A DNA stretch of 64,000 bases from Candidatus Woesearchaeota archaeon (GCA_964468545.1 CAYXTT010000001.1:1894-65893), one strand, 5' to 3'; positions 4,486-53,230 are shown, counted from the stretch's first letter. Made by a program: numbers and translations. Notes: a model not told the origin generated them from the sequence alone.

Positions 4486-5310
4486 CTACAAACTCCCCCA
4501 CTCTCTCATCCCAACAACCGAATCTCCAACAGCGTCGGGACTTTCACATATCAAAACAACATCTTTATCTAACCCAGACAAAAATTCCAACACCTTCTTC
4601 CATTCAGACAAAGGCGTCACCAAATGTTTCTTCTCGCCCTTATCTCCAAACTCAATCCCTGAAAAATGCACGTGCCAATTCTTCAACTTGAAAACCTCTT
4701 CAATTTTCTCAAACTCATAATTTTTATAACGAGCCAAAACATGCGCAATATCAATACAAACCCCGCAACCCGTCTCGCGAACCAATCGCCCAACCTCGTC
4801 AATCGAACCAAAAACATTCACCTTCCCCATAACCTCCGGACACAATTCAACATCCCATTTATTTTCCTTCACAACTTCCATCATCTCAACCACCCCTTCC
4901 TTAATCTTCTGAAAATCCGCTTCCATCCATTCTGAATTCTGACACCTGACACCTGACACCTTATTCAAATTCTTTGAGTTTGAATAAAATCCCGGATGAA
5001 AAACAACCCGCTTCGCCCCGAGCCACGACGCAACCTCGCAACATTTCAAAATCCGAGCCCTCGACATCTCAACCTTCTTCTCTTCCTTCGAATTCAAATT
5101 AATCCAATATGGCGCATGCACCGACAAATAAATCCCCAACTTTTTCGCAACCCGACCAATTCTCAAAGCATCCTCTTTCTTTTTAATATAAATCCCATAA
5201 GTAAACAAAACCTCCGCCGCCCGAAAACCCAACTTATGATACATCTCCAAATTCGCAACCGCATCACCAACCGACCCAATCCCCGTCGGACCAAATCTTA
5301 TATTAGACAT
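4486..5310 (-). CDS. nfo: Endonuclease IV (AP endonuclease, xylose-isomerase-like TIM barrel).
   Basis: Motifs HAPYWINL, HPGFY and IDIAHV. 274 aa. It carries an in-frame repeat insertion, listed separately. Confidence 0.8.
   Translation of the reverse strand: MSNIRFGPTGIGSVGDAVANLEMYHKLGFRAAEVLFTYGIYIKKKEDALRIGRVAKKLGIYLSVHAPYWINLNSKEEKKVEMSRARILKCCEVASWLGAKRVVFHPGFYSNSKNLNKVSGVRCQNSEWMEADFQKIKEGVVEMMEVVKENKWDVELCPEVMGKVNVFGSIDEVGRLVRETGCGVCIDIAHVLARYKNYEFEKIEEVFKLKNWHVHFSGIEFGDKGEKKHLVTPLSEWKKVLEFLSGLDKDVVLICESPDAVGDSVVGMREWGSL
4939..4987 (+). repeat. (GACACCT)x3 tandem heptamer followed by a 9-bp-stem hairpin (TTATTCAAA-ttctttgag-TTTGAATAA). It is inserted in-frame inside nfo.
   Basis: Read directly from the sequence. 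On the coding strand it translates as ...NSKNLNKVSGVRCQNSEW... Confidence 0.8.
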
Positions 5311-17791: not shown

Positions 17792-18409
17792 TTATCTTGC
17801 TGCATCAGCCGCCTTTTCCGAATCATTCCTCTTCGAAATCGCATAACTCTCGCCAGAATTCGCCGCCGCCAGCATCAACTCCTTCGCCAACGCCTCGACA
17901 ATCGTCGCCTTTTTATTAAACGCCTTGTCATAAGCCCCATTTACAAAATATCTCAAAACTAAATTCAATCTCCGTCGCGGAGAAACATCAACCGCCTGCG
18001 GATACTTCGCCCCCCCATATTCAATCGATGTAACCTCGTCCCGTGGCGCCGCATTCTCAATCGCCTTCACAAAAACCTTCAACGGATTCTCCCCCGTGCT
18101 CTTCTCTATAATCTTAAACGCATCAATCACAATCATCGTGCACCTCGTCTGCTTCCCACTAATCCACCCCGTAATAATCCTGTGCTTCTTCCCTCGACTT
18201 CCCGGCACTTGCAACAAATTAATCAATCTCTCGACGACATTAACCTTCGCCCTCGTCGGGTCCCACTTAATCCTCCCATGCGATTTCAACAACAACTTCG
18301 GCGACAAATTCACAACTTTCTTCAATCCCGGATCCTCAACTCGAACCTCTGACGCATCAAACAATCCAAAAACTTTCATCTCTACCATCAAAAAACCGAC
18401 CTCCCACAC
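17792..18409 (-). CDS. rps7: Ribosomal protein S7.
   Basis: KVFGLFDASEVRVEDPGLKKV... The true start is probably the internal MKVFG (about 18379). Confidence 0.9.
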   Translation of the reverse strand: MWEVGFLMVEMKVFGLFDASEVRVEDPGLKKVVNLSPKLLLKSHGRIKWDPTRAKVNVVERLINLLQVPGSRGKKHRIITGWISGKQTRCTMIVIDAFKIIEKSTGENPLKVFVKAIENAAPRDEVTSIEYGGAKYPQAVDVSPRRRLNLVLRYFVNGAYDKAFNKKATIVEALAKELMLAAANSGESYAISKRNDSEKAADAAR

Positions 18410-18593
18410 ACCATAGAATTCATTTTATTAGACTGTCCATATAGACAAATTTCTCGCTGACCCTTCATTTTATCTTCCTCTCTAATAATTGTCCTATTAA
18501 ATGGAGCACCGACGATATACTCAACACTCACAAGCGTATCATACCTTCCATTAAAACCATCCTTATTATCTCTTAACCATCTCAACTCCCATA

Positions 18594-18730
18594 AAAAATC
18601 CGTGTTAGTCCGTGTTAGTCTATGTGCTATTTTTTCTCCAGTTACACAAGTCACACCAAGCAACCCAAGTCGTGCGACAAGCGACAAGCGACAAGCGACA
18701 AGCGCAATGAAATTTCTCTGAAATTTCATC
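18594..18730 (+). repeat. Composite repeat element A in the S12-S7 spacer. It has a CGTGTTAGTC decamer block, an AGTTACACAAG segment, (GCGACAA)x4 and the hairpin ATGAAATTTC-tct-GAAATTTCAT.
   Basis: Tandem repeats and the inverted repeat are read directly. It shares its architecture and partial sequence with element B at 23433-23565. Confidence 0.8.
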
Positions 18731-23432: not shown

Positions 23433-23565
23433 AAAATCCGTGTTCGTCCATGTTAGTCCGTGTACCATTATTTCCAAAACTATAAGTTACATCAAGTTGC
23501 CCAACTCCTCCGAATGCCGAATGCCGAATGCCGAATGCCGCGAATGAAATTTCCGATTTCATTCG
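23433..23565 (+). repeat. Composite repeat element B in the rpoB-rpoA spacer. It has the decamer block AAAATCCGTGTTCGTCCATGTTAGTCCGTGT, an AAGTTACATCAAGTTGCCC segment, (CCGAATG)x3.5 and the hairpin GAATGAAAT-ttccg-ATTTCATTC.
   Basis: Seen in the sequence. The 3' hairpin arm overlaps the last two rpoB codons. Confidence 0.8.
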
Positions 23566-26813: not shown

Positions 26814-26832
26814 TTTTCACCTCTTTAAAAAA

Positions 26833-26892
26833 CGACCAGCGACCAGCGACCAGCGACCAGCGATATGAAAAAATCAAAGATCTTTTCATATT
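26833..26892 (+). repeat. Mini-element E in the rpoH-rpoB spacer. (CGACCAG)x4 is followed by the hairpin ATATGAAAA-(11 nt)-TTTTCATAT.
   Basis: Seen in the sequence. It lies between the rpoH stop and the rpoB Shine-Dalgarno GAGGTGA. Confidence 0.8.
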
Positions 26893-31786: not shown

Positions 31787-32578
31787 TCAAACCCTAACCC
31801 CAACTTCCTCAAAATAATCCGCTATACTCTTTCTCAACTCCTTCAAAAATTCCTCACTCACATCTTTCTCGTCGACAAAAGAAGAATCAACAAACTTACC
31901 CTTATTCTTAAACCCCTGCAAAAAAAACCTCCTCGGCTTTCCCCTACAAACCTCATTTATCCACCTCGCCATCTCAACGACACTCTCCTTTGAATGCAAC
32001 CGCCCAACAACCGTCGTTCTAAACTCATAACCCCTGCTAAAATCCGTGTTAGTCCGTGTTAGTCCGTGTGCTAAATTTAATTCCTTATCAAGTTGTCCAA
32101 AATCATAAATCATCTTCATCGACCTTTCCACCGACGACAAATCAACGCTAACGCCAACAATTTTGGAATAATCCTCACGACAACCCTTAACATCCATCGC
32201 AACATAATCCACCAATCCTTCGTCAATCAACTCTTTAAGCCGAGAAGGAAACGACCCATTCGTATCAATCTTCACCTTAAACCCCATCTCTTTTACCCGA
32301 CGAACAAAATCAAAATCCAAACTCATCAACGGCTCACCCCCACTAATACAAACCCCATCCAACTTTCCAACTCGACTCTTTAAAAAATTCAAAACCTCTT
32401 TTTCTGCGAATTGCGAATTGCTAATTGCTAATTGCGCATCAACGGAGTTGACGAGTTCCGGATTATGACAAAACCCACAACGAAAATTACACCCGCACAA
32501 AAAAACAACACAACAAATTTCCTCCGGATAATCAATCGTCGAAACCTTTTGCAACCCAGCAATTTTCATTCTCCACAT
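31787..32578 (-). CDS. nrdG: Anaerobic ribonucleotide reductase activating protein (radical SAM). It carries two in-frame repeat insertions.
   Basis: CGCNFRCGFCHNPE radical-SAM cluster motif. The heptamer repeat encodes AQLAISNSQFA and the decamer repeat encodes GLTRTNTDF. Confidence 0.8.
   Translation of the reverse strand: MWRMKIAGLQKVSTIDYPEEICCVVFLCGCNFRCGFCHNPELVNSVDAQLAISNSQFAEKEVLNFLKSRVGKLDGVCISGGEPLMSLDFDFVRRVKEMGFKVKIDTNGSFPSRLKELIDEGLVDYVAMDVKGCREDYSKIVGVSVDLSSVERSMKMIYDFGQLDKELNLAHGLTRTNTDFSRGYEFRTTVVGRLHSKESVVEMARWINEVCRGKPRRFFLQGFKNKGKFVDSSFVDEKDVSEEFLKELRKSIADYFEEVGVRV
32041..32072 (+). repeat. (TCCGTGTTAG)x3 decamer block (AATCCGTGTTAGTCCGTGTTAGTCCGTGTGCTA), in-frame inside nrdG.
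   Basis: It is identical in type to the heads of elements A, B and D. An AAGTTGTCC segment follows, as in element B. Confidence 0.8.
32406..32451 (+). repeat. (GCGAATT)x2(GCTAATT)x2 heptamer block plus a short hairpin TCAAC-gga-GTTGA, in-frame inside nrdG.
   Basis: Seen in the sequence. Confidence 0.75.
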
Positions 32579-32680
32579 TCACAAGCAAACATCATTCTAT
32601 CCTTGAACTCCGCAAACTTCCCCTCGTTCCATTGCGCAGTCGGTCGCAAATACCCGACAACTCGACTCCACACTTCACAT

Positions 32681-34897
32681 TTAGTCCTCTCCATCTTCTC
32701 CTCCGAAATTTAATTTAAGTTTCATCGGAACCAAAACTTCATGCCCAATTTTTGACCCCGAAACAATACCATCCTCCTCGATAAAAATCGACGACCCAAC
32801 GCTCTCATCAATAATAATCTCCTCCGCCATTTCCTTCTTGCTGCTCTCAACCTCAATCGCAACAACCTCCCGTTCAGCGTCGCACTTCGGACAATACTCA
32901 TGCTCACCCGCAAGATAACCATGAATCGGACAAATCGAAAATGTCGGCGTAATCGTAAAATATGGCAAATGATAATTATTAGAAATCTTCCTCACCATAT
33001 TCTTAACCGCGTCCTTCGTCATCCTCTCACCAACAAAAGTATGAAACACTGTCCCGCCGGTATACTTACATTGAAATTCATCCTGCAAATCCAACGCCTC
33101 AAAAACATCGTCGGTAAAATTCACCGGCAAATGCGACGAATTCGTGTAATACGGCTTAGCCCCTTTCTGAACCGCCACCTCGTTTGCAACAATAATCCTC
33201 CCAAATCTTTTCTTATCCATCCTCGCAAAACGATAAGTCGCACCCTCACCCGGCGTCGCTTCCAAATTATAAATATTCCCCGTCTCCTCCTGGAACTCCG
33301 CCAACTTATCCCTCATAAAATCCAAAATCTTCAAAGCAAATTCCCGCCCTCTCTCTGTCGCAATGCTTTCCCCCGGCATAAAATTCAAAATCGCCTCATT
33401 CATCCCAAGCAACCCAATCGTCGCAAAATGATTTTTCCAATACTGCCCAAATCTCTGGTATACCTGCCTCAAATAAAACTTACTATAAGGATACAACCCC
33501 ACCTTCGTGAAATTCTCAATCGCCTTCCTCTTAATTTCAAGACTCTCTTTCGTTAACTCCATCAATCTATCCAGTCGCCCGATAAAATCCTCCTCGCTCG
33601 TCGACACATATCCCAACCTCGCCATATTAATCGTTACAACTCCAATCGAACCAGTCTGTGGATTCGACCCAAACAAACCGCCACCACGTTTTTTCAAAGT
33701 AGTATTATCAATTCTCAACCGGCAACACATCGACCTCGCGTCCTCCGGCTTCATATCAGAATTAACAAAATTCGAAAAATACGGTATACCATACTTCGCC
33801 GTCATCTCCCAAATCAAATCATACTCCGGATTATCCCAGTCAAAATCTTTCGTAATATTATAAGTCGGAATCGGGAAAGTAAAAACTTGTCCCGACGCAT
33901 CACCATCCATCATACACTCCGCAAACGCCCGATTCAACATATCCATCTCTGGCTTAAATTCCTTGTATGTCTCAATCTGCGGCTGACCACCAATAATCAC
34001 ATGTTCGTCCATCATATAATCTGGCACTTTCAAATCCATTGTAATATTTGTAAAAGGGGTTTGAAATCCTGTTCTCGTCGGCACCGCCATATTATAACAA
34101 AAACTCTGAATCGCTTTTTTTACTTGCTTGTAATCCAGATTCTCATATCTAATAAATGGAGCCAATAATGTATCAAAATTCGAAAACGCCTGCGCCCCCG
34201 CACTCTCTCCCTGCAAAGTATAAAAAAAATTCACTACCTGCCCCAATGCCGCATTAAAATGTTTTGGTGGCCTACACTCAACTTTCCCTTTCACGCCCCT
34301 AAATCCAACCATCAACAAATCTTTCAAATCCCACCCAACACAATATGCCCCAAGACAATCTAAATCATGAACATGAATATCTCCGGCCTCATGTGCTTTC
34401 CTAATCGCCTCTGGATAAATCCGCCTCATCCAATAATTAGAAATAATCTTCCTCTTAATATACTCATTCAACCCCTGCAAACTATAACCCATATTTGAAT
34501 TCTCCTTTACCATCCAATCGTCTAACCCAATATAATCCTCGACCGCCTCAATTGTATCAAACAATCCCTTAACCTTCCTCAACTCATCATGACTCTGCCT
34601 ATAAAGAATATACGCCTTCGCAACCTTCGCGTGCCCCTCTTCAATCAAAATCTTCTCAACCAAATCCTGAACTTCCTCGACCTCTGGAATCCCAAACTCT
34701 CCGTGAATCTCATTAAGTTTCTCGATGACCATATCTGCCAACCACACTGGTCTCTCTCTATCTTCTCCTCCAACCGCCCGCGCCGCTTTCCAAATCGCCT
34801 CCGCAATCTTCTCTTTCTGAAAAAACACAACACTCCCATCTCTCTTCCTAATTTTCTTTACCATCTTCCACCTCGCCATATTTTTTATCTTCTTCAA
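32681..34897 (-). CDS. nrdD: Anaerobic ribonucleoside-triphosphate reductase, class III. The real start is probably MVKKIRKRDG at about 34864.
   Basis: The N-terminal ATP-cone VKKIRKRDGSVVFFQKEKI and NrdD core motifs (RTGFQTPFTNITMDL). The C-terminus has a CPIHGY...CPKC Zn ribbon and Gly-radical region, then an acidic tail. Confidence 0.9.
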   Translation of the reverse strand: MKKIKNMARWKMVKKIRKRDGSVVFFQKEKIAEAIWKAARAVGGEDRERPVWLADMVIEKLNEIHGEFGIPEVEEVQDLVEKILIEEGHAKVAKAYILYRQSHDELRKVKGLFDTIEAVEDYIGLDDWMVKENSNMGYSLQGLNEYIKRKIISNYWMRRIYPEAIRKAHEAGDIHVHDLDCLGAYCVGWDLKDLLMVGFRGVKGKVECRPPKHFNAALGQVVNFFYTLQGESAGAQAFSNFDTLLAPFIRYENLDYKQVKKAIQSFCYNMAVPTRTGFQTPFTNITMDLKVPDYMMDEHVIIGGQPQIETYKEFKPEMDMLNRAFAECMMDGDASGQVFTFPIPTYNITKDFDWDNPEYDLIWEMTAKYGIPYFSNFVNSDMKPEDARSMCCRLRIDNTTLKKRGGGLFGSNPQTGSIGVVTINMARLGYVSTSEEDFIGRLDRLMELTKESLEIKRKAIENFTKVGLYPYSKFYLRQVYQRFGQYWKNHFATIGLLGMNEAILNFMPGESIATERGREFALKILDFMRDKLAEFQEETGNIYNLEATPGEGATYRFARMDKKRFGRIIVANEVAVQKGAKPYYTNSSHLPVNFTDDVFEALDLQDEFQCKYTGGTVFHTFVGERMTKDAVKNMVRKISNNYHLPYFTITPTFSICPIHGYLAGEHEYCPKCDAEREVVAIEVESSKKEMAEEIIIDESVGSSIFIEEDGIVSGSKIGHEVLVPMKLKLNFGGEDGED

Positions 34898-39881: not shown

Positions 39882-40697
39882 CTACAAACACTCAAAAATA
39901 TTACACGCACTACAAACACTCCCACTCGCCGGCTCCCCACACTTCTCACACTTCCCCAACTCTCTTTCATCAACACTCAAATTCAAATTCAAAAATTCTT
40001 CAACAATTTTCAACTTCTCAGCGTCGCTAATCACCTTCATCCAATCCCGAGTCTCAACCCGATAAGTCCCAAACGCACACGGACACTTATTATACAAAAT
40101 ATCAAACTTCTTCATCTTAGCAAACTTCCTAATCTCCGACTCCGGCACAAAAAACAACGGCTTAACTCGTTGCACAAATCCACTGACACCTGACACCTGA
40201 CACCTGACACCTGTTTTTGGCGCACTCCTCGCGCCCAAAAACAAATTGCCTTTCAAGAAATTCATCAAAACATTCTGACATTCATCGTCGAGATTATGCC
40301 CCGTCACCAACTTATCAGCCCCGAGCTTCCGAGCCCACCGATTCAAAACCCACCGCTTCACCGTCCCACAAACCGAACACCCAGTCAACCCTTTCTTCTT
40401 TTTCAAAACCGCCTTAATAAAACAAATTCCCTGCCCCAACTCCGCCTTCAAATCAACAATCGTCAACCGAACCCCAATCTCCCCACAAAATTTCTCCATA
40501 TTCTTATTATGAACCCTAGACCACTCGCCAAGTCCCAAGTCAATCATCAACCCAGAAACATCGTAACCCAACTTCTTCAAAATATACAACACCGACGTCG
40601 AATCCTTCCCACCCGACAACGCCACAACAACTTTGTCCGACTTTTCCAACAACTCATACTTCCCAATCGTCTCCACAACTTTCTTTTCAACATCCAT
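39882..40697 (-). CDS. PP-loop ATPase of the TtcA/TtuA/NcsA tRNA-thiolation family. It carries an in-frame repeat insertion.
   Basis: PP-loop SGGKDS, then CSVCG and a C-terminal CEKCG...CSAC. The insertion encodes LFLGARSAPKTGVRCQVSGVSG. Confidence 0.7.
   Translation of the reverse strand: MDVEKKVVETIGKYELLEKSDKVVVALSGGKDSTSVLYILKKLGYDVSGLMIDLGLGEWSRVHNKNMEKFCGEIGVRLTIVDLKAELGQGICFIKAVLKKKKGLTGCSVCGTVKRWVLNRWARKLGADKLVTGHNLDDECQNVLMNFLKGNLFLGARSAPKTGVRCQVSGVSGFVQRVKPLFFVPESEIRKFAKMKKFDILYNKCPCAFGTYRVETRDWMKVISDAEKLKIVEEFLNLNLSVDERELGKCEKCGEPASGSVCSACNIFECL
40183..40243 (+). repeat. (GACACCT)x4 tandem heptamer plus the imperfect hairpin TGTTTTTGGCGC-actcct-CGCGCCCAAAAACA, in-frame inside the PP-loop ATPase gene.
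   Basis: Seen in the sequence. It uses the same heptamer as the nfo insertion at 4939-4960. Confidence 0.8.
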
Positions 40698-52866: not shown

Positions 52867-52937
52867 AGCAGACACCAGGATTTGCACCTGGGATCAGCGG
52901 GTTGCAGCCGCTTGCCTTACTACTTGGCTATGCCTGC
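52867..52937 (-). tRNA. tRNA-Cys (anticodon GCA).
   Basis: The reverse complement has acceptor GCAGGCA/TGTCTGC, anticodon stem AGCGG/CCGCT with loop CTGCAAC, and T-arm CCAGG-TGCAAAT-CCTGG. Confidence 0.7.
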
Positions 52938-53028
52938 ATACAAGATTTACAAATCAATAGTTTTTAAGATTAATTGCACCTGGGATTAGTATGATTGTAG
53001 AAAAAATTTCGCTTCAAAAAAAATCCGT

Positions 53029-53058
53029 GTTAGTCTGTGTTAGTCCGTGTGCTATTTC
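53029..53058 (+). repeat. Decamer element D (AAAATCCGTGTTAGTCTGTGTTAGTCCGTGTGCTATTT) in the tRNA-Cys/tRNA-Arg spacer.
   Basis: Same family as 18594, 23433 and 32041. A partial tRNA-Cys T-arm copy (TTGCACCTGGGAT) lies at 52971-52988. Confidence 0.8.
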
Positions 53059-53082
53059 TCTAAAAACAGATTACTAACTCAA

Positions 53083-53157
53083 CGCTCCCGACAGGATTTG
53101 AACCTGCGACTTTTAGCTTAGAAGGCTAACACTCTATCCAGGCTGAGTTACGGGAGC
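53083..53157 (-). tRNA. tRNA-Arg (anticodon TCT).
   Basis: The reverse complement has acceptor GCTCCCG/CGGGAGC, D-arm ACTC...GAGT, anticodon stem TTAGC/GCTAA with loop CTTCTAA, and T-loop TTCAAAT. Confidence 0.8.
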
Positions 53158-53230
53158 ACAAGATTAGTTAATTATCCCAATTTAAAAGTTTATTGACAAA
53201 GAATAAAAACTCTACTTTTCTTAAGATACC

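Follow-up and report, generated by a model that had tools for sequence, protein, structure and literature searches.

Two blocks of short tandem repeats sit inside the nrdG gene of a Candidatus Woesearchaeota archaeon, which raises the question of where such blocks come from and whether they are carried into the protein. A first-pass annotation of this 64-kb stretch of DNA (hereafter the window) had read them as two separate in-frame insertions, one from each of two repeat families, and had proposed either that the enzyme tolerates them or that they are removed at the RNA or protein level. We found both blocks in place and in frame, within a gene that is otherwise intact.

31787..32578, minus strand: nrdG ORF, NrdG2-type class III RNR activase, by profile matches and invariant motifs

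The full ORF translates to 263 aa, and in a profile search it matched TIGR02495 NrdG2 with E = 1.3e-55 and 187.8 bits (curated cut-off, 131.15), covering profile positions 1-192 of 193; Radical_SAM/Fer4_12 domains were also matched. The CX3CX2C cysteines (C30, C34, and C37) and the GGEP motif (80-83) are invariant columns in NrdG alignments A1 and A4. Since an identical database protein from an independent ENA assembly (P0001) is 260 aa long, the second ATG, at 32569, is probably the true nrdG start. The nearest database relatives are DPANN (source names archaeon, Pacearchaeota, Nanoarchaeota, and Woesearchaeota), and the order in which nrdD (32681-34897) and a small C-terminal ORF lie directly upstream of nrdG is kept in relatives. 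NrdD itself is spread over two overlapping minus-strand ORFs (32681-34897 and 32566-32694): the 738-aa body ends after a long insertion following the CPKC zinc motif, and a separate 42-aa ORF (MERTKCEVWSRVVGYLRP...) carries the glycyl-radical motif. An NRDD-matching ORF of 40-44 aa follows nrdD in most of the relatives examined, and NrdD could be either a split enzyme with a free glycyl-radical peptide or the product of a programmed frameshift.

Given that the source is metagenome derived and that repeats can mislead assemblers, one might suspect that the nrdG blocks are an assembly artifact or that the gene is a decaying pseudogene. We consider this scarcely credible. An identical protein has been obtained from a different source, where it is encoded on two contigs; homologous inserts occur in syntenic relatives whose assemblies come from NCBI, JGI, and ENA; and all of the NrdG catalytic motifs are intact.

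The two blocks and the hairpin that accompanies the first of them are as follows.

32438..32452, minus strand: hairpin GTCAAC-tcc-GTTGAT, directly 5' (in the sense direction) of the heptamer array, encoding VNSVD
32405..32436, minus strand: heptamer array at site 1, sense (CAATTAG)2(CAATTCG)2CA, ~4.6 copies, residues ~44-56
32039..32098, minus strand: decamer element at site 2, with GGACAACTTG box, 26-nt spacer, GCA(CACGGACTAA)2CACGGA, and TTTT; residues 162-183

On the plus strand, the heptamer block reads (GCGAATT)2(GCTAATT)2 at 32405-32436, and in the gene sense it encodes DAQLAISNSQFAE (AQLAISNSQFA); the block-encoded peptide at site 1 spans NPELVNSVDAQLAISNSQFAEK. The decamer block, (TCCGTGTTAG)x2.7-3 at 32043-32069, encodes AHGLTRTNTDF, and its gene-sense array, (CACGGACTAA)2CACGGA, encodes HGLTRTNTD, with ELNLAHGLTR and TNTDFSR among the block-encoded peptides of site 2. 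Translation thus bore out the peptides that had been reported for both blocks. The supposed AAGTTGTCC tail of the decamer block, in contrast, turned out to be the conserved 5' box GGNCAACTTG of a longer decamer element, which in nrdG measures 60 nt. The nrdG hairpin has 5-6 bp, and one relative (L002) has a homologous hairpin, GTCAA-taaa-GTTGAT. In the protein, the blocks amount to 13 aa at site 1, right after the Fe-S cluster loop, and 22 aa at site 2, in the loop between a long helix (residues 147-171) and the following beta strand.

An AlphaFold model of NrdG built with 102 homologs had a pLDDT of 89 and a pTM of 0.88. Its only weak stretches, residues ~41-60 and 161-180, are the two insertions, with pLDDT below 50 exactly at residues 173-178 (LTRTNT). 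The modeled fold matches the radical-SAM partial barrel as in PFL activase structures (best Foldseek matches 8fo0, 3c8f, and 3cb8; E ~1e-10, TM 0.66-0.73), and mapping the insertion positions on this PFL-activase-like model, as had been recommended, placed both blocks in low-confidence loops. The PFL activase has a site-1 loop of comparable length.

We compared the lengths of both sites among the 119 closest NrdG homologs, which are DPANN and the majority of which are 232-234 aa long. The distance from the cluster motif to GKLD, which spans site 1, is exactly 25 aa in 100 of the 119 and longer in 19, and the distance from MD(V/I)K to EFRTT, which spans site 2, is 31-32 aa in 92 and longer in 27. 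Relative to this baseline, the window NrdG has 6 additional aa at site 1 and 21 at site 2. The activase had been described as about 30 aa too long; it is indeed longer than its homologs, but by 27 aa, the other 3 aa being due to the upstream ATG. This gain is not a clean element length, as arrays and hairpins partly replace native loop residues. The last nrdG heptamer unit merges into the native F-(S/A)-E codons, and a GCAAY core is common to the site-1 arrays of several lineages.

Inserts recur at the same two places in relatives, where site 1 carries heptamer-type peptides and many of the site-2 inserts in DPANN NrdG are translations of decamers (TRTNTDE, PRTSTDEH, and TRMNTDEH). Their distribution is patchy: P0002 is without the site-1 insert, and P0006, P0010, P0014, and P0017 are without both. 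A neighbor-joining (NJ) tree of the NrdG core requires no fewer than 14 changes of state for the 18 carriers at site 1 and no fewer than 18 for the 26 carriers at site 2. Among the matches listed in a GTDB scan with the NrdG alignment, most were bacterial or distant DPANN genes, and these, bacterial NrdG2 genes included, had the baseline length. The first-pass annotation had set against its own reading the possibility that NrdG proteins of unrelated lineages contain the same peptide segments. Other NrdG proteins do contain TRTNTDE-like peptides, but all of these come from DPANN relatives and the occurrence is patchy; with bacterial NrdG2 at the baseline, this points to recurrent or exchanged insertions rather than to an ancestral protein segment. 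The pattern fits recurrent insertion at two permissive, perhaps preferred, spots, recombination of insert-bearing alleles, or both. Because either site is occupied alone in some relatives, we treated the two insertions as separate events. The decamer block is 100% identical in nucleotides between the window and its relative L001, but several ordinary conserved blocks are also 97-100% identical, and we do not take this identity as evidence of an extra DNA-level constraint.

The frame of the blocks bears on whether they remain in the protein. If they were removed before or after translation, by a BHB-type intron, other RNA excision, bypassing, or protein splicing, neither frame nor stop codons would be constrained. 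We found, however, that both nrdG blocks are open solely in the frame used by nrdG; each of the other two frames contains 1-2 stops within the heptamer module and 3-4 within the decamer module. The 7-nt unit is read in all three phases over successive copies, and the third unit is CAATTCG, placing TCG where CAATTAG would give an in-frame TAG; with a chance of about 1 in 2, this counts as weak evidence of TAG avoidance. The host frame is also open in the window copies within TtuA-like and EndoIV-like genes, in every in-gene copy seen in relatives (nrdG, TtuA-like, nrdD, malic enzyme, and deaminase-like genes), and in further hosts (dCMP-deaminase-like, LeuRS-like, and other ORFs). ORF-based sampling of such copies is biased to intact genes; a DNA-pattern scan that does not depend on gene calls gave three independent DPANN-type ORFs (303, 177, and 724 aa), all of them open.

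Translational bypass elements are known from phage T4 gene 60 and as the mitochondrial byp elements of Magnusiomyces, and archaeal BHB introns occur in protein genes. Like the nrdG blocks, these are short non-native insertions in protein genes, often with a hairpin, but they are skipped or excised and need not be open, whereas the nrdG blocks and their relatives are open and in frame. No significant RNA fold joins the block boundaries (z = +0.18 at site 1 and -0.58 at site 2), and the blocks contain neither a stop codon nor matched take-off/landing codons for bypass. On these grounds we rejected a BHB intron or other RNA excision, as well as bypass. An intein was rejected as well, as it needs at least ~130 aa with splicing motifs at both ends, which are absent from blocks of 13 and 22 aa, and so was a CRISPR-like reading, for which the size is wrong and the required features are absent. 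DPANN archaea have unusual RNA processing, the hairpin modules are structured, and the elements are co-oriented with transcription in every case, all of which would suit removal; given that every in-gene copy is in frame, open, and open only in the frame used, we nevertheless hold removal to be very improbable. Of the two possibilities first proposed, tolerance by the enzyme is thus the one that agrees with the frames and with the position of the inserts in low-confidence loops. Solely from frame conservation, we infer that the blocks would be translated as loop extensions and that the enzyme would tolerate both.

Neither block is peculiar to nrdG. Across its 64 kb, the window contains six modules of the heptamer kind and four of the decamer kind, located in operon spacers and in genes (nrdG and two others).

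18593..18729, minus strand: composite in the S12-S7 spacer, with hairpin 18707-18729 (containing the S12 stop), (CGCTTGT)x4.4, CTTGGGTTGCTTGG box, decamers, and T6
23433..23565, minus strand: composite in the rpoB-rpoA1 spacer, with hairpin 23541-23565 (containing the rpoB stop), (CGGCATT)x4.4, GTTGGGCAACTTG box, decamers, and TTTTGTTT
26827..26891, minus strand: hairpin (containing the rpoH stop), (CGCTGGT)x4.4, and T6, just upstream of the rpoB start
40183..40243, minus strand: hairpin and (GTGTCAG)x~4.4-4.6, in frame in a TtuA-like PP-loop ATPase gene (39882-40697)
4939..4987, minus strand: hairpin and (GTGTCAG)x3.4, in frame in an AP_endonuc_2 (EndoIV-like) gene (4486-5310)
53016..53082, minus strand: decamer element with T8, directly 3' of tRNA-Arg(TCT)

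The six heptamer arrays lie at 4939, 18674, 23510, 26833, 32405, and 40183. Four of them are perfect (31 nt, 4.4 copies, 100% match by TRF) with a different unit in each, and the exact 28-nt heptamer block of nrdG, although unique in the window, is one of six arrays of the same build. The nrdG decamer recurs at 18599, 23437, and 53024, and a 17-mer of it had 8 matches in the window compared with 0 expected from 100 shuffles. As had been noted, the LTRTNTDF peptide reappears in an ORF across a composite element, that at 18388-18729, which reads ...AHRLTRTNTDF.... Three intergenic copies fall in the conserved rpoH-rpoB-rpoA1...S12-S7 gene string. The decamer element at 53016-53082 lies between tRNA-Arg (53082-53158) and tRNA-Cys (52867-52937), a terminator-like context. 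G makes up 11.5% and C 28.4% of the window plus strand, and almost every gene lies on the opposite strand, so that the sense strand is G-rich and C-poor; the decamer unit is C-rich in sense.

The GTGTCAG unit occurs in two unrelated genes (4939-4961 in the EndoIV-like gene and 40183-40213 in the TtuA-like gene), with different perfect 9-bp hairpins, and it is unlikely that these shared arrays arose by independent in-place slippage. At intergenic sites, the 5' arm of the hairpin holds the stop codon of the upstream gene (rpoH, rpoB, and S12 in the window and an S14-like gene in another genome, L196, at ~2735-2760), and these stop-containing hairpins (26863-26891, 23541-23565, 18707-18729, and that of L196) always have the form ATGAAA(T)...(A)TTTCAT.

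The elements are modular, being built from a hairpin, a ~four-copy array, the GGNCAACTTG box, CACGGA decamers, and, if intergenic, a T-run. The decamer array is the 3' end of a ~60-70-nt element with the conserved GGNCAACTTG box and an AATAGCA lead-in, and two window spacers contain a composite of ~135 nt in which this element is joined to the hairpin-array module. A perfect stem of at least 7 bp stands immediately 5' of the array in 8 of 9 arrays from the window and its two close syntenic relatives, L001 and L002, compared with 1.3% of background positions; the link between hairpin and array is real. The same composite, with a GAAATTTC...GAAATTTC hairpin, is also found in L196, between S14-like and S8-like ribosomal protein genes (by translation), and, with an 8-mer array x4.4, in frame in a 724-aa ORF of L202 that is locally leucyl-tRNA synthetase-like. 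The GAAATTTC hairpin composite is thereby common to the window S12-S7 spacer and L202, which are unrelated loci in different genomes. Given that the modules are joined in composites, nrdG site 1 can be read as the 5' module and site 2 as the 3' module of one element family.

Folding was confined to the short 5' hairpin of the heptamer module, and the element overall is not a palindrome forming one stable hairpin. The decamer elements showed no fold beyond that of shuffles on either strand (z -0.6 to +1.4), so we set aside the idea, unsupported in this lineage, that the decamer spacer represents a decayed inverted repeat of the decamers. Features of a MITE or other transposon-derived element were not seen: we found no terminal inverted repeats or target-site duplication, GGNCAACTTG and CACGGATTTT, with which the element begins and ends, do not form an inverted pair, and neither the 20 scanned window ORFs nor the syntenic loci included a transposase or mobilizing enzyme. 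Rfam 15 matched only five tRNAs in the window at gathering score; over the composite element and a bacterial decamer hairpin, there was no meaningful match up to E = 10. Literature searches with the element sequence strings found nothing, and those combining DPANN with repeat keywords found nothing specific.

Since many DPANN NrdG proteins have extensions at these two loops, with recurring TRTNTDE-like peptides, and since NrdD is unusual in this clade, it could be argued that the longer loops are a lineage-specific adaptation of NrdG (such as a docking surface for the split NrdD) and that the DNA repeats are incidental. The same DNA, however, is also found in spacers, behind a tRNA gene, and within unrelated proteins, and close relatives are without one or both inserts. 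Moreover, units of 7 and 10 nt pass through every reading frame, which means that the DNA repeat determines the peptide, and the inserts are the low-confidence parts of the AlphaFold model. We therefore regard adaptive loops as improbable.

Comparison of orthologous positions revealed that the arrays turn over rapidly. In the rpoH-rpoB spacer, the array is CGCTGGT x4.4 in the window, TCACTTT x5.9 in L001, CGTCGCC x4.3 in L002, and a 16-mer x4 in L087, and at the TtuA site the units across relatives are GTGTCAG x4.6, GGATGGGAGA x3.3, and GTCGCAG x6.3; the hairpin-plus-array build is kept while the unit or period changes. More distant relatives without the spacer or without the hairpin have no array. 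We considered that the TtuA hairpin might have been born from native sequence, and rejected this because an array-free relative (L084) has no hairpin there, which indicates that hairpin and array arrive together. Periods 7 and 10 dominate, with 15 and 10 arrays, respectively, in 190 kb of the clade, ~3x the density of other loci.

Several further arrays and neighboring ORFs were seen in these relatives. The longest array, ~19 heptamers as (GAAATTA)9(GAGATTA)10, lies in the spacer just upstream of nrdG in the Pacearchaeota locus L084 (9659-9792). Between rpoB and rpoA1, an ORF of 101-114 aa with no assigned function is present in L001 (15266-15610), L002 (18616-18954), and L086 (8592-8897). That of L001 starts with the decamer-encoded STRTNTDEHG; the window has only the 133-nt composite there (23433-23565), and L087 has 16-18-mer x4 arrays at this position. 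In L086 (2508-2600) and L196 (2761-2850), a conserved structured piece, with an outer stem UUCCAYG...CRUGGAA around a UUCG-loop hairpin, comes after rather than before the heptamer array, and in L086 it is in frame in a malic-enzyme fusion gene.

Such fast turnover is consistent with slippage, which has been proposed as the cause of heptanucleotide repeats, the commonest class of long simple-sequence repeats (SSRs) in prokaryotes (Mrazek 2007, as summarized in PMC4679880). It is thus conceivable that the arrays are ordinary long SSRs, generated by in-place polymerase slippage beside a hairpin with no mobile element involved. The differing units at orthologous sites, the merging of the last nrdG unit into native codons, the GCAAY core shared by several lineages, and the very patchy presence implied by the NJ tree would all be in keeping with this origin. 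Several features are not: the decamer element has conserved nonrepeat parts (the GGNCAACTTG box and AATAGCA lead-in) and recurs almost unchanged at four loci of the window and in other genomes, the whole composite, including the GAAATTTC hairpin, stands at unrelated loci (window S12-S7 and L202), the GTGTCAG unit is shared by two unrelated genes, and the NrdG insert sizes are not multiples of three units. Slippage as the entire origin of the blocks is therefore possible but, in our judgment, unlikely.

The decamer extends well beyond this clade. A 26-nt CACGGAYKAA decamer pattern was matched exactly in 20 IMG/VR contigs of 46-66% GC, and a related 29-nt pattern had matches in GC-rich metagenome contigs. 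In the GC-rich contigs, the decamer array often comes after a gene, with an inverted copy of itself behind it that completes a long hairpin, and in two of them heptamer arrays lie just upstream of the decamers. In a CPR bacterial locus, the related CACAGATNAG arrays form palindromes, and a scan of viral contigs for GTCGCNN x4 returned 88 stretches. No mobilizing gene was evident between the paired decamer hairpins of one phage contig (L179), where the ORFs resemble ordinary phage structural proteins by eye. The GC-rich phage and bacterial contigs with CACGGAYKAA arrays (L176-L195, L197, L199, L200, and L203) have a GC content of 0.46-0.69, and L197 has a run of more than 200 nt of decamers that is open in all three frames. 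Spurious peptides of the TDEHG / IRVHPW type are found among database hypothetical proteins, and the GC-rich decamer arrays would be a likely source of them.

Orientation suggests a further possibility. All 16 decamer copies in DPANN-type DNA and all nine hairpin-array modules are co-oriented with genes, and the T-run is T6-T8 in intergenic decamer copies but T4 or absent in in-gene copies. Strict co-orientation and intergenic T-runs hint at an RNA-level role and are not explained by purely selfish DNA; one may speculate that the intergenic form has a transcript-level role, such as in 3'-end formation, or that oligo-T terminators are selected against in genes. We tentatively entertain, without favoring it, the idea that the composite (hairpin/array/GGNCAACTTG/CACGGA decamer/oligo-T) is an undescribed, transcription-oriented modular element, either an RNA-level module or a new class of non-autonomous element. 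Its CACGGA-decamer core would then be common to DPANN archaea, GC-rich bacteria, and phages. As an RNA-level module, it would serve in operon spacers, either to mark 3' ends or processing sites or as a platform for protein binding, and would spread into coding loops as well; as a non-autonomous element, it would move through, or be selected via, the transcript. In either case, the free-sequence, fixed-copy array would be generated rather than inherited.

The explanation that we consider likely is that an intact nrdG took up two of its host's own repeat modules, in frame, and that these are translated and tolerated rather than removed, as selfish or neutral DNA of the kind represented by Rickettsia palindromic elements (RPE). 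In this scenario, nrdG is an intact and probably functional activase gene that has taken up module 1 (a small hairpin plus ~four heptamers) right after the Fe-S cluster loop and module 2 (the 60-nt GGNCAACTTG...(CACGGACTAA)n) in the loop between helix 147-171 and the next beta strand. Both co-oriented, frame-keeping modules would be translated as loops of +6 and +21 aa, which the radical-SAM core would tolerate. The modules may behave like selfish or neutral repeat DNA of the RPE kind, present in operon spacers and permissive loops, with only in-frame, open copies surviving in coding sequence. The arrays would turn over by replication slippage beside the hairpin, and new copies would presumably be seeded via insertion or recombination, whichever the route.

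RPE were reportedly described by Ogata and colleagues in 2000 as 'selfish DNA in protein-coding genes'. They resemble the DPANN elements in being short repeats dispersed in a small genome, where they lie intergenically as well as in frame within conserved genes; in the latter, the added peptide takes up permissive, probably surface, positions and function is kept. RPE, however, make up a single sequence family of palindromes, 100-150 bp in length, and belong to an alphaproteobacterium, whereas the DPANN elements are modular, archaeal, and always co-oriented with genes, with a decamer module that has no predicted fold and with the same two nrdG loops repeatedly struck. Because they are modular and not palindromes overall, the DPANN elements are not members of the RPE family; the likeness is a functional analogy by description, and a sequence relationship is not expected. 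RPE are also mentioned in a review of MITEs (PMC10969869).

Tandem heptamer systems are known from bacteria as well, such as the cyanobacterial STRR and the TAACTGA repeats of Beggiatoaceae (PMC4679880) and the GGGNATC repeats of Xanthomonas and Nostoc, which show a four-unit preference (PMC4692102). Bacterial heptamers are enriched between co-directional genes, just upstream of starts, over stops, and in ribosomal-protein operons. By unit length and tandem build, the DPANN arrays qualify as long SSRs of this heptanucleotide class. Bacterial long SSRs, whose unit class is 5-11 nt, share with the DPANN arrays the tandem heptamers, mostly in few copies, and occasional in-ORF copies. They have one unit per genome, however, while the unit of the DPANN arrays varies by site and between relatives, and their in-ORF copies are peripheral or in hypothetical proteins, while DPANN copies also lie in catalytic domains of conserved enzymes. 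The DPANN arrays further differ in being tied to a 5' hairpin and joinable to a conserved decamer module. Among archaea, the Borg elements of Methanoperedens, as described in PMC9879509, likewise have perfect, fast-evolving repeats of independent origin at homologous places, both intergenic and genic, and their genic repeats make disordered protein segments, to which the DPANN inserts can be likened. Within ORFs, however, the unit length of every Borg repeat is a multiple of three, and Borg repeats are A-rich and without a conserved companion module, whereas the DPANN genic units are 7, 8, or 10 nt. With such units, the frame cycles through the unit, and openness depends on the unit sequence and on the total length.

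The main interest of this locus is the element family that it exposes, less nrdG itself, and the striking features of that family are the cross-domain decamer, the constant number of ~four copies, and the strict co-orientation with genes. If our reading holds, DPANN genomes of ~1 Mb would contain an active family of short translated repeat modules that repeatedly enter conserved enzymes, including a radical-SAM cluster domain, and this would be an archaeal counterpart of the RPE of Rickettsia, built from 7-10 nt tandem units. The inserts would also identify natural insertion-tolerant loops in NrdG. Repeat modules of this kind would explain odd peptides (TRTNTDEHG-like) and length heterogeneity in DPANN protein families and 'hypothetical proteins', and repeat-encoded segments should accordingly not be taken as functional motifs.
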